DNA from: Escherichia phage vB_EcoM_DE16
Length of the DNA: 64,000 bases
Reading direction: 5' to 3' (one strand)
Sequence record: OP595145.1
Part shown: in pieces, positions 29,974-55,832 of the stretch
Position numbering within the stretch: position 1 is the stretch's first letter
Layout: every line of letters starts with the position of its first letter
Program-made: the position numbers and the translations under genes
The notes under the pieces: model-generated
Seen by the model: the letters and a program-made list of their open reading frames with translations, nothing else
What the model was told of the DNA's origin: nothing
Database searches by the model: none

Positions 29974-29987
29974 TGTTTTTCTCCTTA

Positions 29988-30959: not shown

Positions 30960-31001
30960 AAGTCTCTCCTATAAAATAGCCTCCCGAAGGAGGCTCATCT
31001 A

Positions 31002-31976: not shown

Positions 31977-32055
31977 TCTTTTCTCCTCTCTTTGCGGGGA
32001 ACTATTCCCCGCTTCATGTGATATATCTTACTCTTTTTAAGAACTATGTCAACAC

Positions 32056-32277
32056 TTATTTTGTTGAATGAGAGGAAAAGATTCCTCGTAATACCGCCAG
32101 AATAAACGAAACACAAACCACGGTCCAGAAGGTTACTGGGACAGTGATATCTGCATGACCCATAACTTCAGCAACATAGTTGTAAGCCAGCAACAGTAAC
32201 CAAGCTGGAATCAAACTAAGCATAAAAGCAATAACAAAAAAGCTTACCACTGCAACAATACCTGCAAAAACACCCAT
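32056..32277 (-). CDS. small two-helix membrane protein
   Basis: 73 aa; two hydrophobic segments. Confidence 0.4.
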   Translation of the reverse strand: MGVFAGIVAVVSFFVIAFMLSLIPAWLLLLAYNYVAEVMGHADITVPVTFWTVVCVSFILAVLRGIFSSHSTK

Positions 32278-32289
32278 ACTAATCTCCTC

Positions 32290-32763
32290 TTAAAGTTTAT
32301 AAATAGTCACATCGTGACCTGTTTTTACTAAAGTTTCTTCAATCATCACTTGGATGATAGCCCAATTACCTCCGGCATGTCCCGCTCCAATCATAGGTAA
32401 ACCGATCTTACATTTTTGGTCACGGAGAAGCAAATCATTAGCCATAGCTATTAGTGCATCGTATAGGGCATCATAGTCCAACTGACGACCTTTAGCATTA
32501 TATCCGTAACGGTATTGCCCGTATAGATTATATACCAAAGGGTCTGATTGTTCGTCTGGCACCCCTAAACTAAAAGAACCTAACTTACTTTGATCACCAG
32601 CCATTGTGTCTAAATCTGCCGCATATGCATAAGGGAATGCTCGTTTAATTTGCGGAGCAATTCCTGCCCCCATATTACACATACAATTGCAACAATGAGC
32701 AATAACAGTTACTTCACCTGCTTTAGCGGCATCAATAAGATTACCTGTTTTCATTTTAAGCAT
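32290..32763 (-). CDS. macro-domain-like protein (ADP-ribose binding/processing fold)
   Basis: 157 aa; VIAHCCNCMCNMGAGIAPQI and IGLPMIGAGHAGGNW resemble the macro-domain N-x6-GGG and G-x-G-x-G loops. Confidence 0.5.
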   Translation of the reverse strand: MLKMKTGNLIDAAKAGEVTVIAHCCNCMCNMGAGIAPQIKRAFPYAYAADLDTMAGDQSKLGSFSLGVPDEQSDPLVYNLYGQYRYGYNAKGRQLDYDALYDALIAMANDLLLRDQKCKIGLPMIGAGHAGGNWAIIQVMIEETLVKTGHDVTIYKL

Positions 32764-32775
32764 TTTAGCTCCTTA

Positions 32776-33603
32776 TTACAGAATGTGTTGTTTTGTGTAA
32801 CGATCCAAGAATTCAAAGTTTTCAGCATACTTTGAAATTCGGTTGTAACCTTCTCCCAAACATCCGAAGAAAAGTTGCTCTACATAGTAGTGTGGCAATT
32901 GGCTAAGAATGATTTTGAAGTCTTCGTGATTTTGGCCCATAAGATACTTAATAGGACGAACAAGACACTGTGCATCACGTTCTTCATTAATCATTTTAAC
33001 AAACGCTTCTGGTGTATTAATATAATTAAAATTCAGTTTAGCTTCGGTATCTGCTTGATTACCTTCATATTTTGCAAAATACAAGAAGTAAACATCATTT
33101 TTAACTTGATTTTCATCAAGGATCTCAATCAGTTTGTCTTCATGAGTTCCAGTGATATTTACATCATCAATAAACACAAGCTTCTTATCACCCCAGAATT
33201 CTTTGTTGCAGTAGAATGTATCCCCATCGATAAGTTTCTTACGACTAGCTTTATCCAAGAAACCATAATCGTTGATATAGCTAACTTTACGATGAATAAT
33301 ATCCAGTTCTGCTGAACGACCTTGATCATATTGTGATTGCAACATATTAAAGTAATTAATAAAATGATCTGTCATCATTGTTGCAGCATTATGCACATGG
33401 TTGTAAGGAGAAGGAATGATAACAAATTGTTCCCCAATATGTTTCATTGCCACTTGAGCAAAAAACTGAAGTGCCAATTCTTTACCCATACGACGCGCAG
33501 CCTGGTTACTACCAAATTTCAATTTTGAATAATCTTGGATATCAAAAGTAGCAGTTTCCAGGTCATCAAATTTATTTGCAAAAATTTGAGTTTGATTACG
33601 CAT
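32776..33603 (-). CDS. type I phosphoribosyltransferase-like protein
   Basis: 275 aa; PRPP-loop-like KLVFIDDVNITGTH. Confidence 0.5.
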   Translation of the reverse strand: MRNQTQIFANKFDDLETATFDIQDYSKLKFGSNQAARRMGKELALQFFAQVAMKHIGEQFVIIPSPYNHVHNAATMMTDHFINYFNMLQSQYDQGRSAELDIIHRKVSYINDYGFLDKASRKKLIDGDTFYCNKEFWGDKKLVFIDDVNITGTHEDKLIEILDENQVKNDVYFLYFAKYEGNQADTEAKLNFNYINTPEAFVKMINEERDAQCLVRPIKYLMGQNHEDFKIILSQLPHYYVEQLFFGCLGEGYNRISKYAENFEFLDRYTKQHIL

Positions 33604-35079: not shown

Positions 35080-35550
35080 TTAATCTGATTGCCAACCACT
35101 TGCCGTTTTGGTCCATAATCTTTGATTATCTGACCCTCTGAAAGGTTTTGTAGTTGGATTGTTTATTTCATACTTTCCGTCTACAATAATGTCAACAAGA
35201 TTTTTAATATATAAAGGCACTTCCTCAAAAGTATATCCTGTATACACCATTATATCTTTGCTTGACCCATAAACGTCTCTAACCTTTTCTATAAGGCTTT
35301 TAACATTGTAAATATTCTGCGGATCTAATGGTTCTCCTCCTAAAATTGTTAAACCTTTTACAAACGGTCTTGACAAATCTTTTAAAACTTGCTCTACATT
35401 TTCGTGAGTAAATGGTTTCCCGTAAGAATAAGACCAGGCTTTCTGGTTAAAACAGCCACGACAACCGTGGCTACAACCACTAACCCAGAGGGAGCACCTA
35501 ACTCCCTCACCATTAATAAGATCTACAGGTTCATATCCTGCAAAATTCAA
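35080..35550 (-). CDS. nrdG: anaerobic ribonucleoside-triphosphate reductase activating protein (radical SAM)
   Basis: 156 aa; CxxxCxxC cluster (GCSHGCRGC); colinear with T4 NrdG including C-terminal RGSDNQRLW. Confidence 0.85.
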   Translation of the reverse strand: MNFAGYEPVDLINGEGVRCSLWVSGCSHGCRGCFNQKAWSYSYGKPFTHENVEQVLKDLSRPFVKGLTILGGEPLDPQNIYNVKSLIEKVRDVYGSSKDIMVYTGYTFEEVPLYIKNLVDIIVDGKYEINNPTTKPFRGSDNQRLWTKTASGWQSD

Positions 35551-37361
35551 AGATGTTTCTCCCTTTGCAAAACTTCCTGCATTTTACCTTTGTTATAAGG
35601 CCGTGAATTAGGGGCAGAAAGATACCCTGATACACGTCTAACTACAGAAATAGTTTCTTCTTCATGGTTGCCACAATCAGGGCACTCAAACCCTTTAGCC
35701 GTTGCCTTAAATTCTCCATGAAAACCACACTTAAAGCATTGATCCACGGGCTGATTAATACCAAAATAGTGAATATGTTCATAAGCGTAGTCTACTAAAG
35801 TCTCCAAAGCTTCTAAGTTATTCTTTAAGTTTGGTGTTTCGACATAACTTATGTTACCACCATTGCTAATCTGTGCAAAACCTGCTTCATAATCCCATTT
35901 TTCAAAAGGATTTGTTACCAACCATACAGGTTGATGAAAAGAGTTGGTAAGATAGTCTCTTTCTACCAAACCTGGGTATTTTTCATTTAAAGCTGTTGCA
36001 AACTTATAGCACAAGGATTCTGCTGGAGTTCCATAGAGACTAAACGCCAGTTTAGATCGTTCTTTAAACACAGCACACACATCTTTCATATGTTGCAGAA
36101 TGTTTTTACCAAGTTCCTTTTTATCTTTTTCTTCTGGATAAAGGATTTCCAAAGCTTCAGCAAGACCTACATAACCAATACTAATAGAAGCATAACCATC
36201 TTCAAACAAAACACCAATTTCATCGTTGGCATTTAAACGCGCTAAAGCCCCTTCCATGAAAAGAATAGGGTTTTCAGATGCTTTGGTATGTCTAATACGG
36301 TTTACACGTAGCATGTGAGCATCATAGGCTATCTCCATATGCTTATTAAGAAGATCGGTGAAAGATTCTCCTTTGCTTCTCGCTTCCGCAGCAATCAGAG
36401 GCAAGTTGATAGAAACTACTCCAAGGTTGAATCGTCCATCATATTTTTCTCCTTGTTCTGTGGCATAGTACGACAAAAAGGAACGACAGCCCATACTCGT
36501 AACGGTACCATCTGCTGATCCCGTAACTTCTTTGTTCAAAGGAACAGAAATAAAATCTGGATAAATACGATCAGCACAACATGCCAAAGCTTGTTGCTTA
36601 AGGTCATAGTTAGGATCACTAGGTTTCATGTTAACACCTTCTTGTAAAAAGAAAATAACTTTAGGGAATACAGGCGTTACATGATCTTTGCCTAGACCAT
36701 TACTATGCACTTTAAGATAGTTAGCTGTGATCATTCTGCCAAAAACAGAGGTATCCAGACCCATACTGATTGTAATAAAAGGAGATTGTCCATTTACACT
36801 CATTAAAGTATTAACCTGATACAAGAGAGTTTGCATAGCATCATATACATCTTGTTCAGTCATTTCTAGGGCTTCTTTCCTTGCATAACAACCGTAGCGA
36901 CGTTTGGTTATCTCCATGTTTTTAAGGAAACTAGCTTCAACATAAGGACTAAGACCTTTATCAATGTGCGCACACGTCTGACCGCCATACTGACTGGAGG
37001 CAACAGCTTGGATGATTTGAGTTAGCACTGTAGTAGCTACTCCAATAGATTTTGGTTTTTCTATCTGTGCAGCACCGATCTTAAAACCATTCTCTAACAT
37101 ATCTTGATAATTAACAAGACAACAGTTTGTAAGAGGAGAGAGTAGATAATCCAAGTCGTGAATATGTCCAAAACCTTCTGTATGCCATTCTGACAAGTTT
37201 TTTGGCAGTATCTGTGTCATTGCCATATGTTTGCTTAAAATCCCCGCCAAGAGATCCCTGTGCGTGTTAACGAGGTGGGAAGGTTTGTTTGCATTCTCTC
37301 TAGTGTATGTTTCTGAAGTGCGATCTAAAAAAGAAAAAACATCTTGGTACAAATCTTTCAT
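35547..37361 (-). CDS. nrdD: anaerobic ribonucleoside-triphosphate reductase (glycyl radical enzyme)
   Basis: 604 aa; N-terminal ENANKPSHLVNTHRDLLAGILSKH close to T4 NrdD; C-terminal Zn ribbon CFKCG...CPDCG and glycyl-radical motif RRVSGY. Confidence 0.9.
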   Translation of the reverse strand: MKDLYQDVFSFLDRTSETYTRENANKPSHLVNTHRDLLAGILSKHMAMTQILPKNLSEWHTEGFGHIHDLDYLLSPLTNCCLVNYQDMLENGFKIGAAQIEKPKSIGVATTVLTQIIQAVASSQYGGQTCAHIDKGLSPYVEASFLKNMEITKRRYGCYARKEALEMTEQDVYDAMQTLLYQVNTLMSVNGQSPFITISMGLDTSVFGRMITANYLKVHSNGLGKDHVTPVFPKVIFFLQEGVNMKPSDPNYDLKQQALACCADRIYPDFISVPLNKEVTGSADGTVTSMGCRSFLSYYATEQGEKYDGRFNLGVVSINLPLIAAEARSKGESFTDLLNKHMEIAYDAHMLRVNRIRHTKASENPILFMEGALARLNANDEIGVLFEDGYASISIGYVGLAEALEILYPEEKDKKELGKNILQHMKDVCAVFKERSKLAFSLYGTPAESLCYKFATALNEKYPGLVERDYLTNSFHQPVWLVTNPFEKWDYEAGFAQISNGGNISYVETPNLKNNLEALETLVDYAYEHIHYFGINQPVDQCFKCGFHGEFKATAKGFECPDCGNHEEETISVVRRVSGYLSAPNSRPYNKGKMQEVLQREKHL

Positions 37362-39610: not shown

Positions 39611-41203
39611 TTAACGATCCTCTCTGATTTGATTAATCTTACGAGCAAGGGCAGCTATAAGCTTATCTTCTTCGGATACAGGAGCCGTGCTCTTACCTAA
39701 ACGATGCATGTCTAGAATCTCTTGAACAGTCCGGTTCCATTGTAGACATTTAATACAACGTGTATGTGCAACATACAGAAGATTTCGTTCTGATTCTTCA
39801 AGACCTACCCACTCACCCTTCTTATCATAATTAGAAGGGAAGTCATTTGCAACAATAACCTGATCCCATTCCAAACCTTTTGATTTGTGGGCTGTAGTTA
39901 AAGTAACTTTAGCCGTTGGAGAGTTACGGTGCATACGTAAAGTGTATGCAATATTATTAGCTTTACCAGAAACAACAATGTTTAAAAGTCGTTTTGCATC
40001 AGGATCTGATTCTGCACACTCTACAAATTCTTCCCAAGAAGTGTAAGGTAGAACTGTCTCATGCTTAACTTTGTCCAAATCACCTCTACGTAAAGCATTA
40101 ACACTATCAACCATAGAAATGAAATCTTTGGTATCTACGTTAATAATAATCTCTTCTCCGTTAGCGATTCGGTCCATAGCTTCGAGCAACAGGGTCAAAT
40201 TCTTACGGAAAATAATGGTGTAAGGTTTACTATAATCTACCACATCAGAATGAAAACTTCCAGTGACAGTATCATAACCTTTCCCTACCAGCGGATGCTT
40301 CAGAGGTGAGCGATCAGAAAGGATCGCATTAGCAATGTCCGCAACTTTAGGACCAAAGCGAAAACAAGCTGTCAGAGGCAACTCAACCCCATATGTAGCC
40401 GTTTGCTTCATCATGTTCTGGCTTCCACGGAACTGATAAATACTCTGAAACTCATCACCCACAACAACAATACGTTTAGCCGATTTAGCATTGCGAAGGA
40501 TAGACAGGAATGCAGGGTTAACATCCTGGAATTCATCTCCAAAAATAATATCGTATCCTAAATCTTCTTTACTCAATTCAAAGAGTTTCACATAGGTGTC
40601 ATGAGTCATAATGGTTTCTGATTTAGGATCAATACGCTCACGCCAAAGTTGCTTCGCATATTTAACAACTTCGTTAATAAGTTTTTGTTCGTTGATGTTC
40701 TTACGTTTAAGATCTGACATATGCACTTTAGGAAAATGTTTATGTCCAATATGTTCATCGTCAGAAAACTCGTATTTAGCTAAAGTTTGTTTTACCATTA
40801 ACCCGATCATTGCACGAGTCAGTAGCACTTTACCATTCTTATCGATCAAGTTCTGAATCTTGAATTTTTTAGCAATCTCACTACCAGTTCCAGCTACGTT
40901 AACATATTGACCTTCTGGACGAGACAATTTGTGTCGAAGGTTTTGTGGAAGACGCTGGTAGCAGATAGAATGTAGCGTTCGGCACATAACATTAGGCGGC
41001 ATTTTACGTCGAGCTTCCTCTGCCATACTTTTGTTAAACGCCAAGTATAGAATACTATCATTTGTGCCATTAGCCAACATATACAGTGTTGACGTTTTAC
41101 CTGATCCAGATTTAGCTTGAATTGTAACGAAACGATTTTCTTTATACCCGCTTTCAATAGCGTATTGTTCCTCGGTAGGTGTAAAACTCAATTGTGTAGA
41201 CAC
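39611..41203 (-). CDS. SF1 DNA helicase, UvrD/Rep-like
   Basis: 530 aa; Walker A AKSGSGKTSTL; motif II GDEFQDVN; motif III VVGDEFQSIYQFRGS; motif VI TAHKSKGLEWD. Confidence 0.75.
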   Translation of the reverse strand: MSTQLSFTPTEEQYAIESGYKENRFVTIQAKSGSGKTSTLYMLANGTNDSILYLAFNKSMAEEARRKMPPNVMCRTLHSICYQRLPQNLRHKLSRPEGQYVNVAGTGSEIAKKFKIQNLIDKNGKVLLTRAMIGLMVKQTLAKYEFSDDEHIGHKHFPKVHMSDLKRKNINEQKLINEVVKYAKQLWRERIDPKSETIMTHDTYVKLFELSKEDLGYDIIFGDEFQDVNPAFLSILRNAKSAKRIVVVGDEFQSIYQFRGSQNMMKQTATYGVELPLTACFRFGPKVADIANAILSDRSPLKHPLVGKGYDTVTGSFHSDVVDYSKPYTIIFRKNLTLLLEAMDRIANGEEIIINVDTKDFISMVDSVNALRRGDLDKVKHETVLPYTSWEEFVECAESDPDAKRLLNIVVSGKANNIAYTLRMHRNSPTAKVTLTTAHKSKGLEWDQVIVANDFPSNYDKKGEWVGLEESERNLLYVAHTRCIKCLQWNRTVQEILDMHRLGKSTAPVSEEDKLIAALARKINQIREDR

Positions 41204-46328: not shown

Positions 46329-46356
46329 TTGATCTGAAATTATTTTCAGGTATCAT
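46329..46356 (+). promoter_or_regulatory. candidate sigma70-like promoter for the rightward early operon
   Basis: TTGATC, 16-nt spacer, TATCAT; about 25 nt upstream of the first plus-strand early gene. Confidence 0.35.
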
Positions 46357-46381: not shown

Positions 46382-46675
46382 ATGATGAACATTACTTTAG
46401 CAACTAAGAATATTTCTGAAACAATTAACGGTTTTGGTGTGATTGTAGCCTTGCACGGTAACAATGAGAAATGGTTGGCTTCTTTTGAAGAGGATCGTCA
46501 ACACAACATTATTTTAGATGCCCCTATAAAAGTTATGCATATCGTTGGTGAAAGCAAAGTGCTCACTTCCTCCCGTTCAAAAGAACAAATTACAAATGAA
46601 TTAGTAAAACTGCTTGACAATGTTCTTAACATGTTTGATAATGCACCCATCGATACAAAACGTGTCTTAATGTGA
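46382..46675 (+). CDS. hypothetical early protein
   Basis: 97 aa; AGAGAGG RBS. Confidence 0.4.
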   Translation: MMNITLATKNISETINGFGVIVALHGNNEKWLASFEEDRQHNIILDAPIKVMHIVGESKVLTSSRSKEQITNELVKLLDNVLNMFDNAPIDTKRVLM

Positions 46676-46687
46676 GAGGAGAACAAA

Positions 46688-46975
46688 ATGTACTATTCAC
46701 AAGACGAAGTAGCAAACATTAAACTGGCAGTGGGAGATCTTATTGTGTCACCTAACTACTATTGGGATAACACAGATTTGGTTGAAGTAGTAACCCATGT
46801 TGGAGTTGAAGGTATTGTGCTCTACACACTAGGTGGAGGTGTTGTTGGGGAAATGGAACGTTATACGACAACGAAGAAACTGGTAAGCTCTTATCACATG
46901 TTTTTACACCAAGGTTCGGAAGAGTATACAGCTTTCTTGTTGAAATTAGATGCAGATCGGGAGAAGGCACGATGA
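46688..46975 (+). CDS. hypothetical early protein
   Basis: 95 aa; GAGGAG RBS. Confidence 0.4.
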   Translation: MYYSQDEVANIKLAVGDLIVSPNYYWDNTDLVEVVTHVGVEGIVLYTLGGGVVGEMERYTTTKKLVSSYHMFLHQGSEEYTAFLLKLDADREKAR

Positions 46976-47328
46976 AAATTGTACACGATGAAATTCAAAT
47001 AGAAGAAAGTGACCTGATGGATTTGGATGCAGCTTTGGGGAAGGTAATCTATGCAGGAATTAAAGCCTTCCGTGAGAAGGCAAACAATAGCACGTTTGTC
47101 ATGATCCCCACTAAACTGATGCGTGTTTTGTATCCAAATAGAAGTGCGCCGTATACAGATGAAGAAGAGGAGACAGGTAGAAGAGAGTGGTTAAATATTT
47201 TAGAAAAGATGGAGAATGCTTTTATTGATAGTGGTAATCCAGAAATCGTGTATGCTCAAGATCAAAGGAAGGCACGATTAGAGGGCCGTCTTTTATTCGC
47301 TAGTTATTTTGATAATCTTTGGAGCTAA
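46972..47328 (+). CDS. hypothetical early protein
   Basis: 118 aa; ATGA overlap with upstream gene. Confidence 0.4.
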   Translation: MKIVHDEIQIEESDLMDLDAALGKVIYAGIKAFREKANNSTFVMIPTKLMRVLYPNRSAPYTDEEEETGRREWLNILEKMENAFIDSGNPEIVYAQDQRKARLEGRLLFASYFDNLWS

Positions 47329-47330
47329 AT

Positions 47331-47507
47331 ATGTCTGAATTCTTCACAATGGTTTTCTTAGGGATCTATCTGATTATTAGTGCTGTTGGCTTAATCATGT
47401 CTCTAATAGAGGAAATGGGAATTAAGTGGAATTGTGCATTCGGTATAGCTCTTATGCTCACTCCAGTTTGGATCTACATTTGCAAATCGGTTGAACTAAT
47501 TGGTTAA
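47331..47507 (+). CDS. small membrane protein
   Basis: Track ORF trimmed to ATG; 58 aa; two hydrophobic helices. Confidence 0.35.
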   Translation: MSEFFTMVFLGIYLIISAVGLIMSLIEEMGIKWNCAFGIALMLTPVWIYICKSVELIG

Positions 47508-47517
47508 TGGAGGTAAT

Positions 47518-47856
47518 ATGTTTAGTAAAGAAATGAGAGAGGTGATCGCTACTCTGGTAGTTGATCATGGTGTTGAAGTTGAGCGTCACGTTTGGAAAGA
47601 TGAGCCTCCTTTCTTTGATTTGGCATCACGGGCTAAAAGTCACATGTATCTCCTTGAAGATGATAAGGATTTTATTCTGCGTATGCGTTATGATCGAGAG
47701 TTTAGAATTCCTCTTGACACAGATCCTGATGATGTAGTATTGTGGTTGGCAGAGCATTTCGCATTTAACGCTCTACATGGAAGAAGTTTTGGTAATGAAC
47801 GTTGGGATACCATTTGTCGTAAACATAATATTGAACCAGAATACGGGAGTATGTAA
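47518..47856 (+). CDS. hypothetical early protein
   Basis: Track ORF (TTG) trimmed to ATG after GGAGG. Confidence 0.4.
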   Translation: MFSKEMREVIATLVVDHGVEVERHVWKDEPPFFDLASRAKSHMYLLEDDKDFILRMRYDREFRIPLDTDPDDVVLWLAEHFAFNALHGRSFGNERWDTICRKHNIEPEYGSM

Positions 47857-48107
47857 TGTTAAGTATCAAACCTAAAATGATTACTGAAGATCAAAAAGAT
47901 TACATTTATAAATGTGGTCGGGTGTGGAAAGAATACACTAAAGGTAATGAAGTTATTGTAGTTACGGAACATACTATTTCTTTATCAGATCTTTTTGGGG
48001 ATTATTTGCAAGTCATTAAAATTGGTATTGACAGAGGTTTGGTGCAGGTGTTAACATTATCCCAAGTTGAAGCAGAACACTTAGACAAAATCATTGTCGA
48101 GTTCTAA
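47856..48107 (+). CDS. hypothetical early protein
   Basis: 83 aa; TAATG coupling. Confidence 0.4.
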   Translation: MLSIKPKMITEDQKDYIYKCGRVWKEYTKGNEVIVVTEHTISLSDLFGDYLQVIKIGIDRGLVQVLTLSQVEAEHLDKIIVEF

Positions 48108-48120
48108 GAGGAGAAAGAAT

Positions 48121-48285
48121 ATGATCTCTTTAGAATCAATAGCTTTTAAGAAGGGGTATACCGCAGGGTTCAAGTTTGGTATGTTTAATAAAGTAAATCC
48201 ATATTGTCCAATGACACACAAAAAGGAATTCGAAGAATGGGAAGATGGATTTTCTAAAGGCTATCAGGCAAAAGGTTGGTTGTAA
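48121..48285 (+). CDS. hypothetical small protein
   Basis: Track ORF trimmed to ATG after AAGAGGAG; 54 aa. Confidence 0.35.
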   Translation: MISLESIAFKKGYTAGFKFGMFNKVNPYCPMTHKKEFEEWEDGFSKGYQAKGWL

Positions 48286-48294
48286 GGAGAGAAT

Positions 48295-48459
48295 ATGATT
48301 TTAAACTTCATCATCAACTTGTGTTTGACATTGGGATTACTCTGTGCAATAGTATCCCCTCTGGTTGGTGAATATTGTTCTGAACTGGCGATGTTTATAG
48401 TTCTTGGTGCGGCTATTGCTAATATGTTTGTCGCTGCGATTTGTATGTTGTGGGAATAG
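48295..48459 (+). CDS. small membrane protein (54 aa), not in supplied ORF track
   Basis: TAAGGAGAG RBS; two hydrophobic segments. Confidence 0.35.
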   Translation: MILNFIINLCLTLGLLCAIVSPLVGEYCSELAMFIVLGAAIANMFVAAICMLWE

Positions 48460-48470
48460 GAGGGAAGTTT

Positions 48471-48827
48471 ATGAAAAAACTAATCTTAGCCACATTGCTG
48501 GCTACCGTAAGCTTCACCACTTACGCTCAAAAATTTGTAGCAGTTAAAACGGATATTGGTAAAGATGTTGTGATCACAGGCAACAAATTTTACTATACAC
48601 CTGGAAATGGTGTTCTAGAAGAGTGCAAAGATGTTGAGGCATATACAGGAAAAGAAGATAACACGGAACGTCCTTTTTATTCGATTATAGCTACTTGCAA
48701 AAATGAAATAGTAGCTATTAAACAATACAAAGATGCCCCTGGAGGAGAGTACTTATTAGTCAAGAATATTAAGAGTGAAAAAACTGCAAAGTTTACAGTA
48801 ATTATTTTAAAAGGAGAAACGTTCTAA
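48471..48827 (+). CDS. secreted protein with signal peptide
   Basis: Track ORF trimmed to ATG after GGAGGGAAG; MKKLILATLLATVSFTTYAQ. Confidence 0.4.
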   Translation: MKKLILATLLATVSFTTYAQKFVAVKTDIGKDVVITGNKFYYTPGNGVLEECKDVEAYTGKEDNTERPFYSIIATCKNEIVAIKQYKDAPGGEYLLVKNIKSEKTAKFTVIILKGETF

Positions 48828-49966
48828 TGAAATACACTATTTTTGGAGATGTAGCTGTTGTAAATAAGGAATATGGCGTTGAAGCTAATAAACTTCCTGC
48901 TGGAGTTTGGGTTGTCAACTGCGATCCGCACGGTAACTACTCTTTAGCGCGTGGCGAAAGTTTCTCTCTTCCGAACACTCTTTATGGGGAAACTAAAGAT
49001 CGCGCCGCACATGTTATTAAAACATTTGCTCGTCGTAGTAAAGAAGGTAAAAATACTGGGGTGTTACTGACAGGCACAAAAGGTAGTGGTAAGACGATGT
49101 TAGCTAAACTAATTAGCATGTCCCTAATGTCCACAGAAGGTTTAGGTATTCCAACCATTTTGGTTACACAGCCTTACACAGATGCTGGATTCTTAGAATT
49201 TATGAGTAAAATTACAGATCGTGCTGTTGTTTTATTTGACGAATTTGATAAAGTGTATGCTAAGAAAGAAGATCAGGAAGCACTGTTGACCTTGTTGGAT
49301 GGAACAGGAAGTGGGAATAAACTTTACATCCTCACTAAAAATAGTGGCTATATCTCGGAATATTTTGTAAACCGTCCTAGTCGTATTTATTACAGTTTCA
49401 ATTACGATAAACTGTCTAGTGAAACTATGTTAGATTACTTGGATAAGAACTTGGTAAATAAAAAGCACGTAGATAACTTCCAACGTTTATGGGATGTTAG
49501 CACAGAGCTGTCTTTCGATGTTATTCAAGGCATTGTAGAAGAATTGAATTTCTATCCAAAAATGACTTTTAAAGAATGTCTTGAAATGATGGGTATTTCT
49601 TTAGGCAACGATGCTAAATGGAATGTGGCTTCTATCGTAGCTAATGGCAAAACCCTGAAGGTGAATTGGATCAATAACTGGCACGACTTCACCCCTACTA
49701 AGTTTTTGTCGGGTTCTTGTTCCCTGAACATCTATCTGCAAAGCTTGAAAGATGATGAAGTGGAAGCAATGGAAACCAACAGTTATGTTATCCTGGATGA
49801 AGATGGCGATCCACATATTGATCTGTGTGCAACTGCTGATGGTCTAACTTGTGATCTGATTGAAGGTGGTAAGATTCTGGTGATGAGCACTACACCAGGA
49901 AACACTCTGCGAGTGGTGCTGGAGCCTGTAACACAACGTTCCACTACACTGGGTAGCGTGTTCTGA
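48827..49966 (+). CDS. AAA+/P-loop ATPase
   Basis: 379 aa; Walker A GTKGSGKT; Walker B VVLFDEFD. Confidence 0.55.
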   Translation: MKYTIFGDVAVVNKEYGVEANKLPAGVWVVNCDPHGNYSLARGESFSLPNTLYGETKDRAAHVIKTFARRSKEGKNTGVLLTGTKGSGKTMLAKLISMSLMSTEGLGIPTILVTQPYTDAGFLEFMSKITDRAVVLFDEFDKVYAKKEDQEALLTLLDGTGSGNKLYILTKNSGYISEYFVNRPSRIYYSFNYDKLSSETMLDYLDKNLVNKKHVDNFQRLWDVSTELSFDVIQGIVEELNFYPKMTFKECLEMMGISLGNDAKWNVASIVANGKTLKVNWINNWHDFTPTKFLSGSCSLNIYLQSLKDDEVEAMETNSYVILDEDGDPHIDLCATADGLTCDLIEGGKILVMSTTPGNTLRVVLEPVTQRSTTLGSVF

Positions 49967-49982
49967 TACAGCACAAATAACT

Positions 49983-50008
49983 AAACCCGCTTCGGCGGGT
50001 TTTGTTAT
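49983..50008 (+). terminator. rho-independent terminator
   Basis: AAACCCGC-TTCG-GCGGGTTT hairpin followed by TGTTAT. Confidence 0.7.
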
Positions 50009-50046
50009 ATTGACTTCAGACTTATAGGGAGAGAGGATAGATAAAG

Positions 50047-51249
50047 ATGGCGAAGACGTTAGAACAGTATATAGGAGAATGTAAACCAATAGCGGAAGCT
50101 AAAGGATATGAGATTATAGGGATTGTAGAGCCATTTAAAGGTGTGCACACGAAGATGATCAACTTCTGCCCTAATCATGGGGAGTGGAGAACATCCACAT
50201 TTGCCAATTTTAAACGTGGTAAGTCTGGTTGCCCTGGGTGCAAAAATGAGAAAGCAAGACAAGACAACAGTAAAAACCTAGATTATTACCTTTCGGAATG
50301 TAAGCCTATTGCTGAAGCTAAGGGAATCGAGATTTTAGGCATTAATGGAGAGTTTATAGGTGTACATACAAAGATGATCAACCTTTGTCCTGAGCACGGG
50401 GAATGGCGAACATTAACATTTCATAATCTTAAGGGTGGTAGTGGTTGTCCTAAATGCGGTAACAAAAGATCTAGGAATTCTAAAATACTCCCAGACGATC
50501 AGCACATACAAGACTTCATTAATACAGGAAAGTTTAAAGAGGGTACAATCTTCACTAAAACAGATAAAAAACGAGGCCGCGATTCTTTATGGTGTGTAGA
50601 GTGTCCTACCTGCTCTCACGATGAGTATGTGCAAGCTGGGGTGTGTGATGGTAAGTTTTATGTCGCAGGGAATGACCTTAAACAAGGGAAGATTCCTTGC
50701 CGTTGTGCAACTAACTGTCATTACACAGAAGCCCAGATTACCTATAGGGTAAAAAAGGCAGTAGAAAGGAAAGGGTATATCTGGGTAGGTTGGATCGGGA
50801 AACCGTCTGTAAGATTAGGTAAGTTTAAATATGGATGTAAGAAACATGGGGTACAAATAGGACGTGCCAGTGGTTTGTTAAATCATGGCACTGGTTGTCC
50901 GCAATGTGCTAACCAGACACAACAACAATGTTACATTAACCACATTCATGATGAACAAGGTATTCTCTGTGCTTTGAAATTTGGAATTGCCAATAATAGT
51001 GATCGCCGTATCAAAAAACAAAATAGTCGTAATGTGTTTACTATGAAACAGGTCCAAGTGTGGCACTTCCCTACTGTGAAGCAATGCAAAGATGCAGAGA
51101 AGCGTTGTAAGCGTGTCCTTCACACGGAAGCAGTGAGCAAATATGCTATGCCAGATGGCTACACAGAAACAGTAGAGTTATCTTGCATGGCCTCAATACA
51201 AAACATTTATAAACTTTATGGTGGAACATTACAGGAGGAAACATGTTAG
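50047..51249 (+). CDS. Cys/His-rich protein with tandem ~55-aa zinc-ribbon-like repeats
   Basis: 400 aa; two near-identical modules (ECKPIAEAKG...GVHTKMIN-x-CP-x-HGEWRT-x-TF...GCP-x-CxN) plus further CxxC/CP-x-C pairs. Confidence 0.5.
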   Translation: MAKTLEQYIGECKPIAEAKGYEIIGIVEPFKGVHTKMINFCPNHGEWRTSTFANFKRGKSGCPGCKNEKARQDNSKNLDYYLSECKPIAEAKGIEILGINGEFIGVHTKMINLCPEHGEWRTLTFHNLKGGSGCPKCGNKRSRNSKILPDDQHIQDFINTGKFKEGTIFTKTDKKRGRDSLWCVECPTCSHDEYVQAGVCDGKFYVAGNDLKQGKIPCRCATNCHYTEAQITYRVKKAVERKGYIWVGWIGKPSVRLGKFKYGCKKHGVQIGRASGLLNHGTGCPQCANQTQQQCYINHIHDEQGILCALKFGIANNSDRRIKKQNSRNVFTMKQVQVWHFPTVKQCKDAEKRCKRVLHTEAVSKYAMPDGYTETVELSCMASIQNIYKLYGGTLQEETC

Positions 51250-51608
51250 TTGACGTTCAAATTATGCGCAATGAAAGGATGGATTTCTTTGAAGCAGTAG
51301 AGGAACATCTGATTCGATGGGATTATGAATTTGTTCCTGCTGGATGTGGACCAGTAGAGCATTTAGCGGAAGACGATGATGTATACATGATCATTCGTCA
51401 AGTGTACCAGACAGACCAGTGTGAAGAAACTCCCGAACTGATTTTGTTTGAGTGTAAAGATCTTGCAAAATATTTTGACTATGGCGGAAAAGAGGGTCAT
51501 AATCTCTCCAGATACAATAAACGTCTACTTATCTTAGACTACATGCGGAACAACAAACACAAACTCATCGACGCAGACGCAGTTTATGGCTACTGGTGGA
51601 TGGACTAA
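51243..51608 (+). CDS. hypothetical early protein
   Basis: 121 aa; start overlaps upstream gene. Confidence 0.4.
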   Translation: MLVDVQIMRNERMDFFEAVEEHLIRWDYEFVPAGCGPVEHLAEDDDVYMIIRQVYQTDQCEETPELILFECKDLAKYFDYGGKEGHNLSRYNKRLLILDYMRNNKHKLIDADAVYGYWWMD

Positions 51609-51621
51609 CAAAGGAGAAATT

Positions 51622-51801
51622 ATGGCACGTTTAGCAGATCATGAAATCTTTAAACCTATTCTGAACCACTATGATGAACTTAAAGCAGTGTTGGATTGTT
51701 ATAGAGAGGATGAAGAACGTTTGGAAGTCAATCTTAAGATAGTTCTGATGAAAGCTTTTCAAGACGGGCAAGCTAAAGTTTTAGAAGGCATGAAAAAATG
51801 A
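51622..51801 (+). CDS. hypothetical small protein
   Basis: Track ORF trimmed to ATG after AAAGGAG; 59 aa. Confidence 0.35.
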   Translation: MARLADHEIFKPILNHYDELKAVLDCYREDEERLEVNLKIVLMKAFQDGQAKVLEGMKK

Positions 51802-52340
51802 GAATAACTGATGAATATGTATTCTTCTTTTCACATAAAGATGTGTTTAGTAATTGGTATATTGCACCCTTTACAGAAACTGAACCAGGTTACAATGAGA
51901 CTTTCTGTTGTGTTGAGCAATATATGATGTGGCGTAAGGCTTTGCTGTTCAAGGATCATGCGATTGCAGCAGCTATCCTTGATCACTCGACTATACGTGA
52001 CAACGAGAGGAAACAAGCTTATTACAAACGTATGGGTAGGGCAGTGTCGGATTTTGATAACAACGTATGGGAAGAGAACCGTGAGCGTATTGTTATGCGA
52101 GGTTTATGCTTGAAATATGTACAGAATCCAGATTTGTATGCAGACTTACACCTTTACCAATACAAAACGTTTGTTGAAGCAAGCCCCTACGATAAGGTTT
52201 ACGGAATTGGAATGGGGATGTATGAACCAGGGGTGCTAAACCCTGCCACCTGGAAAGGGCAGAATCTTTTAGGCAAATATCATAATAAACTGATCGAAAT
52301 ACTTTTCCCAGACAAAATACCGCAAAGACGATATTTGTGA
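51798..52340 (+). CDS. NADAR (YbiA-like) domain protein
   Basis: 180 aa; FFFS...FSNWY, FCCVEQYMMWRKALLF, ASPYDKVYGIGMG follow the NADAR pattern. Confidence 0.55.
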   Translation: MRITDEYVFFFSHKDVFSNWYIAPFTETEPGYNETFCCVEQYMMWRKALLFKDHAIAAAILDHSTIRDNERKQAYYKRMGRAVSDFDNNVWEENRERIVMRGLCLKYVQNPDLYADLHLYQYKTFVEASPYDKVYGIGMGMYEPGVLNPATWKGQNLLGKYHNKLIEILFPDKIPQRRYL

Positions 52341-52395
52341 TATTTTAACTTTTTTCATTTTTAGAACAAAGGTGTCACTTTGTAGCACAGAAATA

Positions 52396-52430
52396 AGGCT
52401 CCTACAGCACCGTAGAGAGCCTATTATTTT
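52396..52430 (+). terminator. terminator-like hairpin after the NADAR gene
   Basis: AGGCTCCTAC-AGCACC-GTAGAGAGCCT imperfect stem followed by ATTATTTT. Confidence 0.45.
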
Positions 52431-52581
52431 GTCCTATACAAACCTTGTCTTTTTCAGTTTGCATCACTAGGATTCGATCTGAGTGGGTTCCTGAAGGTCT
52501 GCCAATAAGATTAAAGGTTATCTCAAATTCCCATTACCTATTATCTCAAAAATCCCTCAAATTATTTAAACTTTTTAAGAA

Positions 52582-52758
52582 TTTACAAAAGTGAAAGTTG
52601 AAAACCAAAATTTAAAGTTTAGGAAAATTATCTTAAAATGTTAGATACAAAACAAAACTCAAAAGTCAAGGAAAATTTTAAAAATTTTGCGCGCCCACAG
52701 TATTTAAAGTTTTTTTGCTTTTACAAAAATGAAAGTACAAAAGCAAAATTTAAAGTTT
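52582..52758. repeat. AT-rich direct repeats (two ~39-bp copies) with embedded TTTAAAGTTT near-palindromes
   Basis: TTTACAAAAGTGAAAGTTGAAAACCAAAATTTAAAGTTT (52582-52620) vs TTTACAAAAATGAAAGTACAAAAGCAAAATTTAAAGTTT (52720-52758). Confidence 0.6.
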
Positions 52759-52807
52759 ACAAAAATTTATGCAGGTGGGAATGAGAAGAGTTCTCATGTG
52801 GAAATGC

Positions 52808-52886
52808 AAATGATAATGATTCGCATTTAGGTTTATAAATGAGATTGATTCTTATTCAATAAGGTAAATGATAATCATTCTCATTT
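52808..52886. promoter_or_regulatory. two Fur-box-like palindromic operators
   Basis: AAATGATAATGATTCGCATTT (52808-52828) and AAATGATAATCATTCTCATTT (52866-52886) vs Fur consensus GATAATGATAATCATTATC; also palindrome AATGAGAAGAGTTCTCATG at ~52779-52797. Confidence 0.45.
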
Positions 52887-53117
52887 AGAGAATGACGCGC
52901 AGGGGCGGTGTTTGTCTCGCGCTCCCGTGTCCCCTCGCCATGTAATAAGAATAACAGATCCAGCCAGGAAAGCAAGCGATTATTTTATCTTTACATTTCT
53001 TTACAAATATATAGCGCCCAGCCTACCGGCGATCAACCTTCCAACCAGCGCCCTGGTATGTTAGCCCCGCCTTTACGCCGTGGGGTGGCGCTTCCTCTTC
53101 TGTATGTAAAACAGTAT

Positions 53118-53160
53118 AAGCCCGATCCCTGGGCTTGTCAAGATTATTTTTTGTTTTCTT
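53118..53160 (+). terminator. terminator-like hairpin at the end of the GC-rich island
   Basis: AAGCCC-GATCCCT-GGGCTT stem then TTTTTTGTTTTCTT 10 nt downstream. Confidence 0.3.
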
Positions 53161-53519
53161 GCCAGGATAGGACACCTAACCAAAAATGCATATCGCCCCG
53201 CGCCCCTGGTGGGATCTTGCTTTCCCCGCCGCCACTGCAAGCCCATAAATAACCATCAGCGAACGGATCAAAGTTTTCTATTTCTTCCACCTTATGATCG
53301 CCCAGGTTGAGAACGGTTTCAACCTTTAAGCCCGTTGCGCTTGCTACCTGGTGCACCGTGCCGCCTTGCCAGCCCAATGAGTGCATAAGGTGTAATGTAG
53401 TATTTGTCATGGTATCGCCCTTTCTTTGTTGTGCGCCCTGGTTGGCGCGGTAGAAAGATGATAGCCGTTTCCTTCATATACAGCAAGCAAAAAGAAAATA
53501 AAAAAGATTGAAAAAGTGG

Positions 53520-53548
53520 TTGACGTTCCTCACCTGGTAGCGTAGTAT
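53520..53548 (+). promoter_or_regulatory. sigma70-like promoter with long leader
   Basis: TTGACG, 17 nt, TAGTAT; ~135-nt leader before ATG 53683. Confidence 0.4.
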
Positions 53549-53682
53549 TCATCTTGTCGAGGGGGCGCGGCACAACGACAATAAACAACAGGAGGGCGCA
53601 ATGTAGGACGGGCAAAGGTGAGGATCTCCATAATCCACCGTCCACCAACAAAAAACATCATTCATCACCTGGAGTTAAAATC

Positions 53683-53880
53683 ATGGCAACATTGCACATA
53701 GTAGCGAAAGCAGGACAAATCAGCGTCGTGGTAAACGGTTTTACTGAGTTCAGTCATCCCCAGGATGATCATGAAACGGTTTTATCTTTTATTGATTCCT
53801 TGTTAGAAATGGGAGTCATTACAGAAGACCAGCACGCTACAAAATGCAAGCGCGTTAATCAAATTGCAGGGATAGAATAA
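53683..53880 (+). CDS. hypothetical early protein
   Basis: Track ORF trimmed to ATG after GGAG; 65 aa. Confidence 0.35.
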   Translation: MATLHIVAKAGQISVVVNGFTEFSHPQDDHETVLSFIDSLLEMGVITEDQHATKCKRVNQIAGIE

Positions 53881-53886
53881 AAAGTA

Positions 53887-53946
53887 TTGACAACAAACAA
53901 CAACCTGATAAGATGTATCACATAGGGCGGGAAGTGGTTTCCCGCT
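53887..53946 (+). promoter_or_regulatory. promoter plus 5'UTR stem-loop cassette
   Basis: TTGACA, 16 nt, TAAGAT; hairpin GGGCGGGAA-GTGG-TTTCCCGC; then AGAGAGATTATCATC-ATG. Confidence 0.5.
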
Positions 53947-53970
53947 CGTAACAGAAGAGAGATTATCATC

Positions 53971-54243
53971 ATGGCATCATATAGCGCAACAATGATCGTA
54001 GCTGGCACAACTGGTAAACCTATGAGCGGTGGCGGATCTTTCGCTAATATCAATATTGACGGGCGTTTATCCCTGGACGCAGCGATTGCCATTGCACGGG
54101 AAACATTTAAAAAAGAATGTAATTTCAATAAGCAAGATTATTTAGGTTTCGCTATTGAAAAAACCGCGCGCTTTGTTGATTATAAAAGCCCGAAAATGAT
54201 CGACACTACACTAAAAGCGCAAGATGTAGCGTTTTTGCTTTAA
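53971..54243 (+). CDS. hypothetical early protein
   Basis: 90 aa; cassette-supplied RBS and ATGGC start. Confidence 0.45.
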   Translation: MASYSATMIVAGTTGKPMSGGGSFANINIDGRLSLDAAIAIARETFKKECNFNKQDYLGFAIEKTARFVDYKSPKMIDTTLKAQDVAFLL

Positions 54244-54246
54244 GGC

Positions 54247-54302
54247 TTGACATTAACGAATAATTTGTTAATATGTTACATAAAGCGGGAATAGTTCCCG
54301 CT
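54247..54302 (+). promoter_or_regulatory. promoter plus 5'UTR stem-loop cassette
   Basis: TTGACA, 16 nt, TAATAT; hairpin AGCGGGAA-TAG-TTCCCGCT. Confidence 0.5.
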
Positions 54303-54319
54303 ATTTGTAAGGTGGTAGA

Positions 54320-54577
54320 ATGTTTTACATCAAATTAAAAGGTCACGTGATCGCGTTCAAAGATAACGCTTTTTACAGATTAGCAAAATATGCGTTAATA
54401 CATCCCCACTATGTTTATATAAGGGGGCGTGATGAAATAAATATCTTTGATCAAACAACATGCGAGAACATCGAGATCCGCAAGGTTGGCGTACGTGACT
54501 ATCGTACATCTTTCTACCCTTGCAAGGATTCAGCAAGTCTTTTTAAAGTATGCCAATTGTTGAAAAAAGGTGGTTAA
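54320..54577 (+). CDS. hypothetical early protein
   Basis: 85 aa; GGTGG RBS. Confidence 0.4.
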   Translation: MFYIKLKGHVIAFKDNAFYRLAKYALIHPHYVYIRGRDEINIFDQTTCENIEIRKVGVRDYRTSFYPCKDSASLFKVCQLLKKGG

Positions 54578-54578
54578 T

Positions 54579-55136
54579 ATGGGCCGCGAATATGTGATCC
54601 AGTCTTGGGTAAAACATGAAGCAGATGATCCGCGCATCATTCCCGATCATCTTATCGATGAATCCACGGGATATAGCGGTGAGCAAATAGGTAACAGATT
54701 AGCACGTAGTAACGGCAACGTAAAAGCGCGTTATGTGCGCCCTGGCTGGCTGGCAAATGGTAACGCTGATTTATCCAGTGCGGAAGATGCGAGCGACGGC
54801 GCGAAAGATAATCCTTTGTACAAAATTGATCCGGCTTTTCGTGTCCTGGATGAATACCCCAGCAAGATAGCGGCGCTCGATCAGGCCCTGGAAAGTAAGC
54901 GCATCACCTGGACCGCTTACAACATGGCAAAAAACGTACTTGATGGTAAATTGATTCAAGCTGAAAGAAAATTAGCCAAAATTGCAGCCATAGCCCAGGA
55001 GGAAGACGAGGAGACAACGGAAGAGGAAGAGTACGAAGAGATCCCGCCGTTGTTGTGTGTTGATGCTTTTCCTGATTATCAGCCGACAGAGGAAGAAAAA
55101 AGGATCGCACTAGAAAACTTTGAAAATAGTCTTTGA
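54579..55136 (+). CDS. hypothetical protein with acidic C-terminal region
   Basis: Track ORF trimmed to ATG after AAAGGTGG; 185 aa. Confidence 0.4.
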   Translation: MGREYVIQSWVKHEADDPRIIPDHLIDESTGYSGEQIGNRLARSNGNVKARYVRPGWLANGNADLSSAEDASDGAKDNPLYKIDPAFRVLDEYPSKIAALDQALESKRITWTAYNMAKNVLDGKLIQAERKLAKIAAIAQEEDEETTEEEEYEEIPPLLCVDAFPDYQPTEEEKRIALENFENSL

Positions 55137-55189
55137 CATATCGCCGCCACTGGCATAATATTTACCACGTAGGGCGGCAATGGTGCCGC
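55134..55189 (+). promoter_or_regulatory. promoter plus 5'UTR stem-loop cassette
   Basis: TTGACA, CATAAT/TAATAT; hairpin GGCGGCA-ATGG-TGCCGC. Confidence 0.5.
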
Positions 55190-55218
55190 TCATAGTGAAA
55201 TTATGCAAGAGGCTTACA

Positions 55219-55314
55219 ATGATTAATAAAGAAAATAGCTTGACGGTTGGAACGATTAACGCTATCATTCTAGCCGTTCCATTTTGGGTTGTAGTAGCGG
55301 CTATTATTTTCTAA
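55219..55314 (+). CDS. small membrane peptide (31 aa), not in supplied ORF track
   Basis: CAAGAGG RBS; MINKENSLTVGTINAIILAVPFWVVVAAIIF. Confidence 0.3.
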   Translation: MINKENSLTVGTINAIILAVPFWVVVAAIIF

Positions 55315-55322
55315 AAATATTC

Positions 55323-55383
55323 TTGACAACGTTTTTTAATCTGATAAGATGTATCACATAGGGCGGCGGAATACTTCCCCGCC
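55323..55383 (+). promoter_or_regulatory. promoter plus 5'UTR stem-loop cassette
   Basis: TTGACA, 16 nt, TAAGAT; hairpin GGGCGGCGGAA-TAC-TTCCCCGCC. Confidence 0.5.
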
Positions 55384-55406
55384 AAAACAAAAAAAAGGGT
55401 AACACA

Positions 55407-55769
55407 ATGAGCAAGCAAATCAATACTATCATGTTTAATCTGGTATCTTTCCGCGATGATATGAAAAATTTACCACGTGAAACGGTTGATATCCATGTTT
55501 CAGCTTATCGCGCCCTTATTGATATGTTACCGCTAAAACGTGATCAACATGCCGCTAATATGATGCTTAATGCTATGCTTAAAAAGATGATTCAAACGGA
55601 TCTTACTCTGGCGTATGAGTATCAAGGGCGCTTATATGCGACTTACAACAAAGCGGTACCTGGTCTGGGAAGTACCGAAGAGTTGCACGGCTTAAACCTG
55701 GATCAAAACACTTGGGATAGTATGCGCCGCGTTATGGTATGGGCCGAAAGCGGTAAAATTTACGAATAA
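55407..55769 (+). CDS. hypothetical early protein
   Basis: 120 aa. Confidence 0.45.
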   Translation: MSKQINTIMFNLVSFRDDMKNLPRETVDIHVSAYRALIDMLPLKRDQHAANMMLNAMLKKMIQTDLTLAYEYQGRLYATYNKAVPGLGSTEELHGLNLDQNTWDSMRRVMVWAESGKIYE

Positions 55770-55775
55770 AAACGG

Positions 55776-55832
55776 TTGACACTGTTTAAACTTCTGGTAT
55801 AGTTTATCACGTAGGGCGGCAATGGTGCCGCC
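55776..55832 (+). promoter_or_regulatory. promoter plus 5'UTR stem-loop cassette
   Basis: TTGACA, 16 nt, TATAGT; hairpin GGCGGC-AATGG-TGCCGCC. Confidence 0.5.

Follow-up and report, generated by a model that had tools for sequence, protein, structure and literature searches.

A NADAR-domain protein of Escherichia phage vB_EcoM_DE16 and its probable role in the reversal of DarT1-type DNA ADP-ribosylation

The stretch of DNA analysed here (referred to below as the window) comprises 64,000 nucleotides of Escherichia phage vB_EcoM_DE16 (sequence record OP595145.1). At 51798-52340, on the forward strand, it carries a gene for a NADAR-domain protein of 180 aa, which is defined by the ORF listing together with profile, fold and orthologue matches. 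The ORF is exactly as described in an earlier, sequence-only reading of this DNA: it begins with an ATG at 51798, encodes 180 aa and ends at 52340, stop codon included. The motifs cited in that reading are also all present (FFFS at residues 9-12, FSNWY at 17-21, EQYMMWRKALLF at 40-51 and GIGMG at 136-140), but the gap between FFFS and FSNWY is of four residues (HKDV) and not of one. Inspection of the sequence shows a Shine-Dalgarno-like AGAAGG (51783-51788, forward strand) 9 nt 5' of the ATG. The ATG itself overlaps the stop codon of the preceding small ORF (ATGA at 51798-51801), and this overlap suggests that translation of the NADAR gene is coupled to that of the upstream ORF. Since no Rfam family is found in 51500-54500 at E <= 0.1 and there are no tRNA genes within the 64-kb window, no known RNA element lies under or beside the gene.

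The NADAR gene is the last of a translationally coupled, co-directional block on the forward strand (46382-52340). This block is split by a bidirectional intrinsic terminator (49983-50002), a GC-rich hairpin that has a perfect stem of 8 bp and T-runs on both strands, located between the AAA ATPase and endonuclease genes. The immediate unit is therefore composed of the endonuclease, ORF121, ORF59 and NADAR genes, whose frames overlap or abut. The first of these four genes (50047-51249, forward strand) specifies an endonuclease-like protein with CapR, DUF723 and GIY-YIG-like (MUG113) domains; its N-terminus is duplicated internally and its length varies among relatives. ORF121 (51243-51608, forward strand; 121 aa, phrog_24465), taken from the ORF listing, overlaps the end of the endonuclease gene. 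ORF59 (51622-51801, forward strand; phrog_22330) encodes 59 aa from an ATG that follows AAGGAG, within a mechanical ORF that opens at 51586, and is annotated in phage tuntematon as a 180-nt CDS.

The position of the gene at the end of an operon, as originally proposed, is borne out. It is the last co-directional gene, and an intrinsic terminator predicted by RNA folding (52396-52430, forward strand) is located 56 nt past its stop codon. This consists of a bulged, GC-rich hairpin of 9-10 bp followed by UAUUAUUUUG, with a folding energy of -18.1 kcal/mol (z = -4.1). In phAPEC8 an ARNold terminator is annotated at the equivalent site; a simple terminator scan missed the present one because of the bulge. 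The description of the operon as 'early' is plausible. A candidate sigma-70-like promoter (TTGATC-16-TATCAT, 46329-46356, forward strand), identified only as a consensus match, lies ahead of the first forward gene at 46382 and faces a divergent promoter (TTGACA-16-TAAGAT) on the reverse strand; such divergent hexamers at the start of the block are compatible with transcription by the host polymerase, that is, early transcription. A simple scan of the region shows no enrichment of promoters over shuffled sequences (42 found, 33.3 +/- 5.9 expected), and a literature search retrieved no transcription data on phAPEC8-like phages. In the other direction, the 1.2-kb region 3' of the NADAR gene includes no convincing ORF, falls to a GC trough of 25% and contains arrayed palindromes that resemble Fur boxes; the array is kept in both of the phage genera compared below.

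Membership of the NADAR superfamily was assessed with curated profiles, as the sequence-only reading had suggested, and the protein scores above the cut-offs of both Pfam and NCBIfam, well beyond what coincidence would give. The Pfam NADAR model (PF08719, DUF1768) matches with an E-value of 1.8e-35 and 123 bits (gathering cut-off 35.1), and the match spans profile positions 3-154 of 163, corresponding to residues 11-161 of the 180 in the protein. No Pfam domain other than NADAR is found at E <= 1. The NCBIfam model TIGR02464 ('riboflavin biosynthesis intermediates N-glycosidase'), which is an equivalog-domain model, gives 114.2 bits for a cut-off of 73.7, and phrog_1017 matches with an E-value of 5e-51. 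In addition, the PADLOC candidate-system component PDC-M42C matches with 121 bits. Among solved structures, the single sequence retrieves only PDB 8BAU (E 1.3e-13). A family profile retrieves 8BAU with an E-value of 4e-35 (124 bits) and Escherichia coli YbiA (2B3W) with 6.5e-16 (62 bits), and does not retrieve any DarG1 structure at E <= 0.01.

An AlphaFold2 model built with 60 homologues has a mean pLDDT of 95.5 and a pTM of 0.89, with disorder confined to the last four residues. When it was compared with the PDB using Foldseek, the only significant matches were again 8BAU (TM 0.78) and YbiA 2B3W (TM 0.68). The predicted structure has the alpha+beta fold of the superfamily (a helical core with small beta-hairpins at the flanks) and, at the level of a model, confirms that the protein is a NADAR-superfamily member. 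Profile match, fold and the presence of the residues that bind ADP-ribose and support catalysis all agree with this assignment.

These residues can be identified by comparison with 8BAU, the complex of ADP-ribose with the NADAR protein of Phytophthora nicotianae var. parasitica (PnNADAR). In PnNADAR the ADP-ribose is contacted by E43, K50, R79, W89, R93, E125, D130 and W133, and the equivalents of E43, K50 and E125 are required both to remove ADP-ribose from guanine and to give rescue from DarT1 (Schuller et al. 2023, PMC11543638; the numbering of the 8BAU chain is offset by 2 from the residue numbers given there). The absence of catalytic residues had been named as an outcome that would speak against the NADAR assignment. 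They are not absent: in the alignment with 8BAU seven of the contacts are identical in the phage protein (E40, K47, R81, W91, R95, E127 and D132) and the eighth, W133, is replaced by Y135. This Trp-to-Tyr change, in the motif YGI, is conservative and common to the Bas60 orthologue discussed below. E40, K47, W91, E127 and D132 are invariant among the 60 homologues and R81 is kept in at least 90% of them.

Three of these positions, placed by the same alignment, are particularly informative. Glu40 (codon 51915-51917, forward strand) corresponds to E43 of PnNADAR, E88 of E. coli C7 DarG1 and E36 of T4 AdfN, and the equivalent Glu in PnNADAR touches the distal ribose (PMC11543638). Lys47 (codon 51936-51938, forward strand) corresponds to K50 of PnNADAR, K95 of C7 DarG1 and K43 of T4 AdfN; this Lys coordinates phosphate and is essential (PMC11543638, PMC11825919). 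Glu127 (codon 52176-52178, forward strand) corresponds to E125 of PnNADAR and E167 of SCO5665. The residue at this catalytic position distinguishes the subfamilies: the NADAR and YbiA types have Glu, DarG1 has Asp and the T4 type has His (PMC11543638, PMC12945103). From its sequence, the phage protein belongs to the Glu-type 'NADAR proper' branch, like the Phytophthora NADAR.

A megablast search with 50000-53500 gives full-length matches with 98% identity to Escherichia phage vB_EcoM_UP17 and to other phAPEC8-like myoviruses (genus Phapecoctavirus, subfamily Stephanstirmvirinae), and the window is thus from a phapecoctavirus. At the protein level, the orthologues phAPEC8 gp010 (YP_007348624) and tuntematon gp050 are 92-93% identical, and those of Bas60 and muut 56-58% identical. 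The first two are labelled 'hypothetical protein' in RefSeq, and several GenBank records name the orthologue 'GTP cyclohydrolase II' or 'COG3236'. We reject the label 'GTP cyclohydrolase II': the protein has no RibA domain and the Pfam search identifies NADAR alone. Judging from this domain content, the label is a carried-over fusion annotation.

The NADAR gene occurs in every one of the 70 phapecoctavirus records with a match to this local block of genes (70 tblastn hits with at least 80% identity) and is thus a constant feature of the genus as sampled. Another 56 records, of Justusliebigvirus type, contain it too, and remoter homologues (34-58% identity) are found by tblastn in 648 further phage records, many of them large myoviruses that infect Staphylococcus, Listeria, Enterococcus, Bacillus, Klebsiella and other hosts. 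Pairwise dN/dS is 0.18-0.22 in comparisons with phAPEC8 and tuntematon and 0.03-0.09 in closer pairs; the gene is under purifying selection. Within the genus, amino-acid variation is concentrated at residues 52-72 (helix 2 and the lineage-specific loop that follows it) and the catalytic positions are all invariant. No ART gene lies next to the closest of the bacterial homologues that we examined, which stand alone or in prophage-like contexts.

The biological role of such proteins has recently been addressed experimentally. T4 gp30.3 (AdfN) strips ADP-ribose from DarT1-modified DNA and counters DarTG1 (Johannesman et al. 2025, PMC11825919). In the same study two NADARs from other phages and unrelated to gp30.3, AdfN-Bas32 and AdfN-Bas60, both neutralise DarT1 in uninfected E. 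coli and allow RB69, T5 and Bas25 to form plaques again on DarTG1 hosts, and are without effect on the thymidine-specific DarTG2 (PMC11825919). AdfN-Bas60 groups with non-YbiA bacterial NADARs in that study (Johannesman et al., PMC11825919). The proteins of Bas60, Bas32 and T4 are the only ones for which neutralisation of DarT1 together with phage rescue has been shown (PMC11825919).

Bas60 (PaulScherrer, MZ501100) is one of the phi92-like phages Bas60-62. The only NADAR match that we found in it is bas60_0111, labelled 'putative YbiA-like N-glycosidase', and it is the GenBank annotation of this sole match that leads us to equate AdfN-Bas60 with bas60_0111. The protein encoded at 51798-52340 is 58% identical to bas60_0111 (QXV83846) over 172 aa (E 6e-69). 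The order of genes is the same in both genera: AAA ATPase, CapR/DUF723-type endonuclease, NADAR, an AT-rich repeat region and a small reverse-strand gene. The level of identity and the shared genome position therefore define the two proteins as orthologues. The sequence-only reading had proposed a counter to DNA ADP-ribosylating toxins as one plausible role; this role has been demonstrated for the syntenic, 58%-identical Bas60 orthologue, one genus away, and the proposal is thereby supported.

We consider it probable that the protein is a stand-alone ADP-ribosyl N-glycohydrolase, the Phapecoctavirus orthologue of AdfN-Bas60, which would reverse DarT1-type DNA damage as a form of counter-defence. 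In the proposed mechanism, K47, R81, R95, W91 and Y135 would hold the ADP-ribose moiety while E40, E127 and D132 would place the distal ribose. The N-glycosidic bond between C1'' of this ribose and N2 of guanine on phage DNA would then be hydrolysed, which would lift a DarT1-type block to replication and yield a replicable template. A DarTG1-type defence would in this way be neutralised by catalysis, without binding of the toxin and whatever the structure of the toxin, as has been argued for AdfN (PMC11825919). Guanine-ADPr removal has been observed with every NADAR tested (PMC11125620, PMC12945103). For this particular protein we infer the enzymatic activity, the in vivo target and the timing of expression by analogy.

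A further point in favour of an anti-DarT1 function is that the same phage encodes a macrodomain protein of the TARG1/DarG class. This protein (32290-32763, reverse strand; 157 aa, TARG1/DarG/SCO6735 class) is a putative AdfM homologue, with 37% identity to Tk.4 of T4, which was recently named AdfM and is an anti-DarTG2 factor. By analogy, this suggests that phAPEC8-like phages carry the two-enzyme DNA de-ADP-ribosylation kit of T4 (a NADAR and a macrodomain protein), gained independently. The macrodomain gene is located inside a Ter-like cluster, with TerD, vWA-TerF-like, TelA, TerC and PRTase_3 genes.

Several observations must be set against an anti-DarT1 function. The protein passes the TIGR02464 cut-off and, as far as can be judged from sequence comparison, is unlike DarG1 (it has the Glu, has no extension and gives no match to a DarG1 structure), and its homologues are numerous among phages that infect Gram-positive bacteria. 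Hydrolysis of guanine-ADPr in vitro is no guarantee of protection in vivo, since neither YbiA nor T4 gp30.3 rescued uninfected cells from DarT1 toxicity (PMC11125620). The 58% identity to the Bas60 protein also leaves room for a shift in specificity, and the differences seen within the genus fall mainly in residues 52-72.

If the reversal of DarT1-type damage is nevertheless the probable function, it could still be part of a wider activity. We regard as speculative, and on balance unlikely, the idea that the Stephanstirmvirinae NADAR, as a Glu-type enzyme, is a broad 'eraser' of ADP-ribosylation (on G and C, in both DNA and RNA), which together with the macrodomain protein would confer a general immunity to base ADP-ribosylating defence toxins, those of systems not yet described included. 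Were this true, the variable surface segment 52-72 might have arisen in an arms race with host factors. Somewhat less likely again is that the NADAR protein has by itself a wider or different de-ADP-ribosylation activity, directed at cytidine as well as guanine on DNA and/or RNA, and is aimed at toxins other than DarT1, either instead of it or in addition to it (for example, pierisin/ScARP-like, YarT-like or RNA-targeting ARTs). Removal of ADP-ribose from cytidine has been shown for other Glu-type NADARs, while Asp-type (DarG1) and His-type (T4) enzymes act only on G-ADPr (PMC12945103), and E127 is invariant in the family of 60 homologues. NADARs also reverse guanosine-ADPr on RNA (PMC11833690), the family is common in phages whose hosts have no documented DarTG1, and the match to the PADLOC component PDC-M42C (121 bits) could be understood in the same way. 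However, no bacterial anti-phage system is known to generate C-ADPr, the phenotype so far attributed to the orthologue is anti-DarT1 alone (PMC11825919) and no ART gene neighbours the closest bacterial homologues examined. Such a wider range of substrates extends the function proposed above and contradicts nothing in it.

A quite different role would be that of a YbiA-type housekeeping or salvage N-glycosidase, which would act on reactive intermediates of the riboflavin pathway, or on similar ribosylamino-pyrimidine nucleotides, in the management of the nucleotide pool. Nucleotide salvage was the other possibility raised in the sequence-only reading. The TIGR02464 score (114 bits against 73.7), the 30% identity to E. 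coli YbiA and the 'GTP cyclohydrolase II' and 'COG3236' labels on GenBank orthologues all point in this direction. Nevertheless, neither the operon neighbours nor the other ORFs scanned in the window include a riboflavin gene (RibA/RibD), and the protein has a single domain. The family profile scores PnNADAR (124 bits) above YbiA (62 bits), AdfN-Bas60 is placed with the non-YbiA NADARs (PMC11825919), and YbiA itself has guanine-ADPr hydrolase activity (PMC11125620). With no rib genes in the ORFs scanned, and hence no support from context, we judge a salvage function very unlikely.

It is just as improbable that the substrates, or simply the ligands, of the protein are ADP-ribose conjugates that are soluble or not part of the genome, such as ADPr-derived immune signals or ADP-ribosylated retron msDNA (with msDNA, the protein could block defence without catalysis): the proposal of Iyer et al. 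favours a soluble ADPr signal but is older than the biochemical work, the case of a phage NADAR with Retron-Eco1 in which enzymatic activity is not required (as cited by Johannesman et al., PMC11825919) has to be set against a strict conservation of catalytic residues that argues for catalysis, and the phenotype of the orthologue concerns DarT1-modified DNA (PMC11825919).

Reversal of DarT1-type DNA modification thus provides a likely function for phAPEC8 gp010 and its orthologues, which are core genes of E. coli phages in therapeutic use, and would allow the public labels, either 'hypothetical protein' or the wrong 'GTP cyclohydrolase II', to be corrected. It also leads to the prediction that phAPEC8-like phages resist DarTG1-type defence. 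The mechanism itself has already been demonstrated for the orthologue in the sister genus, and the present analysis extends this known biology by a further orthologue.

The NADAR proteins described to date allow the phage protein to be placed more precisely. E. coli YbiA (2B3W, COG3236) resembles it in fold (TM 0.68), in the Glu-type site and in the TIGR02464 model, whose cut-off the phage protein passes. The two are only 30% identical, YbiA is without the 11-residue GIGMG..P loop segment, and it is the product of a LexA-regulated, chromosomal housekeeping gene that does not rescue from DarT1 toxicity in vivo (PMC11125620).

DarG1 (for example, of E. coli C7 or Geobacter/Trichlorobacter lovleyi) would be expected to share the hydrolysis of guanine-ADPr, and the phage protein may be seen as the functional analogue of an 'orphan antitoxin'. 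It differs from DarG1 at the catalytic position, where DarG1 has an Asp (D171 in C7) and the phage protein Glu127, and in architecture, DarG1 having an N-terminal extension while the phage domain starts at residue 11. No DarT gene or ART domain is encoded beside the NADAR gene, whose neighbours are the AAA ATPase, the endonuclease and small ORFs. A strict DarG1-like orphan antitoxin was rejected: the catalytic residue and the architecture both differ, and there is no similarity at the profile level.

T4 gp30.3 (AdfN-T4) is a member of the same superfamily and has the same proposed role, the reversal of guanine ADP-ribosylation by DarT1. It is, however, only 20% identical, and the T4 type has a His where E127 stands, with no Glu aligning there. 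The T4-type NADAR needs the T-even context for full activity and clusters beside DarG1. An identity as a T4-type 'phage NADAR' was also rejected (20% identity to gp30.3, Glu127 and not His); the lineage of the present protein was acquired independently of the T4-type phage NADARs (PMC11825919).

The Phytophthora NADAR (8BAU, in complex with ADP-ribose) is the best structure match both by sequence and by fold. It belongs to the same Glu-type 'NADAR proper' branch and the ADP-ribose contacts are kept, although it is a eukaryotic protein with approximately 28% identity. Compared with it, the loop at 63-72 is longer in the phage protein, which is missing the insertion that precedes the C-terminal helix of PnNADAR.

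AdfN-Bas60, finally, comes from another genus (Justusliebigvirus, Escherichia phage PaulScherrer/Bas60). Six residues are inserted after residue 32 in the Bas60 protein, which also differs in the 52-72 segment and in the C-terminal tail, and the phage studied here has two extra small ORFs between the endonuclease and NADAR genes. The two proteins nevertheless share the subfamily Stephanstirmvirinae, a stand-alone form of approximately 180 aa, the gene neighbourhood and the catalytic residues, including the Tyr.

Most amino-acid differences among the phapecoctavirus alleles of the NADAR protein, the predicted guanine-ADP-ribose glycohydrolase, are concentrated in residues 52-72 (window 51951-52013), which comprise helix 2 and a lineage-specific loop; few occur in the C-terminal half. 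This variability could stem from recombination in that patch, or from diversifying pressure on a surface. A bacterial homologue (42% identity) is carried at 5001-5489 of Burkholderia multivorans contigs L007/L008. Since it is adjoined by Gp3-like and DUF7696 genes and by large unannotated ORFs, the locus resembles a prophage or mobile element, not a toxin-antitoxin pair.

The endonuclease-like gene (50047-51249, + strand) includes three stretches of CapR homology, a DUF723 domain and, at the C-terminus, a GIY-YIG-like domain (MUG113). A module of approximately 75 amino acids is duplicated in its N-terminus (LEQYIGECKPIAEAKGYEIIGI / LDYYLSECKPIAEAKGIEILGI). Relatives have versions of different length (999, 1185, 1191 and 1404 nt), and a bidirectional terminator lies upstream of the gene, which suggests that it is mobile or rapidly remodelled.

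Directly 3' of the hairpin terminator of the NADAR gene, approximately 1.1 kb (52440-53550) is without a convincing ORF, and no Rfam or tRNA match was found there. The GC content dips to 25% in a trough with direct repeats of 72 nt and 29 nt (52558-52767) and is then unusually high, at approximately 52%, across 52890-53400. ORF annotations in this GC-rich part disagree between records, being on opposite strands and mutually overlapping (52908-53252, + strand, in the phAPEC8 record; 53144-53410, - strand, in those of tuntematon and Bas60). The region may serve as an origin, have a regulatory role or specify a non-coding RNA.

Imperfect palindromes spaced at 29 nt are arrayed at 52780-52890 (AATGAGAAnnnTTCTCATT / AATGATAATCATTCTCATT). 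One of these (52864-52882) agrees with the Fur-box consensus of Escherichia coli, GATAATGATAATCATTATC, in 16 of its 19 positions; by chance, the window would be expected to contain 0.05 such matches. The array is kept in the related phages phAPEC8, tuntematon, Bas60 and muut, whose records annotate it solely as 'repeat_region'. The array could act as an element that titrates Fur or is regulated by iron, or as a set of operators or iterons.

Further downstream (53520-55810, + strand), small genes follow one another, with a candidate sigma-70 promoter ahead of each. These candidates (at 53887, 54247, 55323 and 55776) are near-consensus with an extended -10 (TTGACA-16-TAAGAT/TAATAT/TATAGT) and have their counterparts in phAPEC8, where they are annotated as repeated PHIRE/MEME promoters. 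Such a layout is typical of early genes transcribed by the host polymerase.

The phage, which is lytic, also carries a tellurite-resistance-like (Ter) gene cluster on the - strand (24371-33603), with TerD (24371-24973), vWA-TerF-like (25484-26278), TelA (27677-28789), SprT-like (28786-29376), TerC (31002-31976) and PRTase_3/ComF-like (32776-33603) genes. NrdG and NrdD (35080-37361) and a UvrD-like helicase (39611-41203) come after it.

A macrodomain protein of 157 amino acids (32290-32763, - strand) matches Pfam Macro at 23 bits (cut-off 22). In the PDB it is matched best by SCO6735 (5E3B; E 1e-12), TARG1/OARD1 and the DarG macrodomains of T. aquaticus and M. tuberculosis. T4 Tk.4, an anti-DarTG2 factor recently given the name AdfM, shares 37% identity with it across 124 amino acids. 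The phage may thus encode an eraser of thymidine-ADPr in addition to one of guanine-ADPr.
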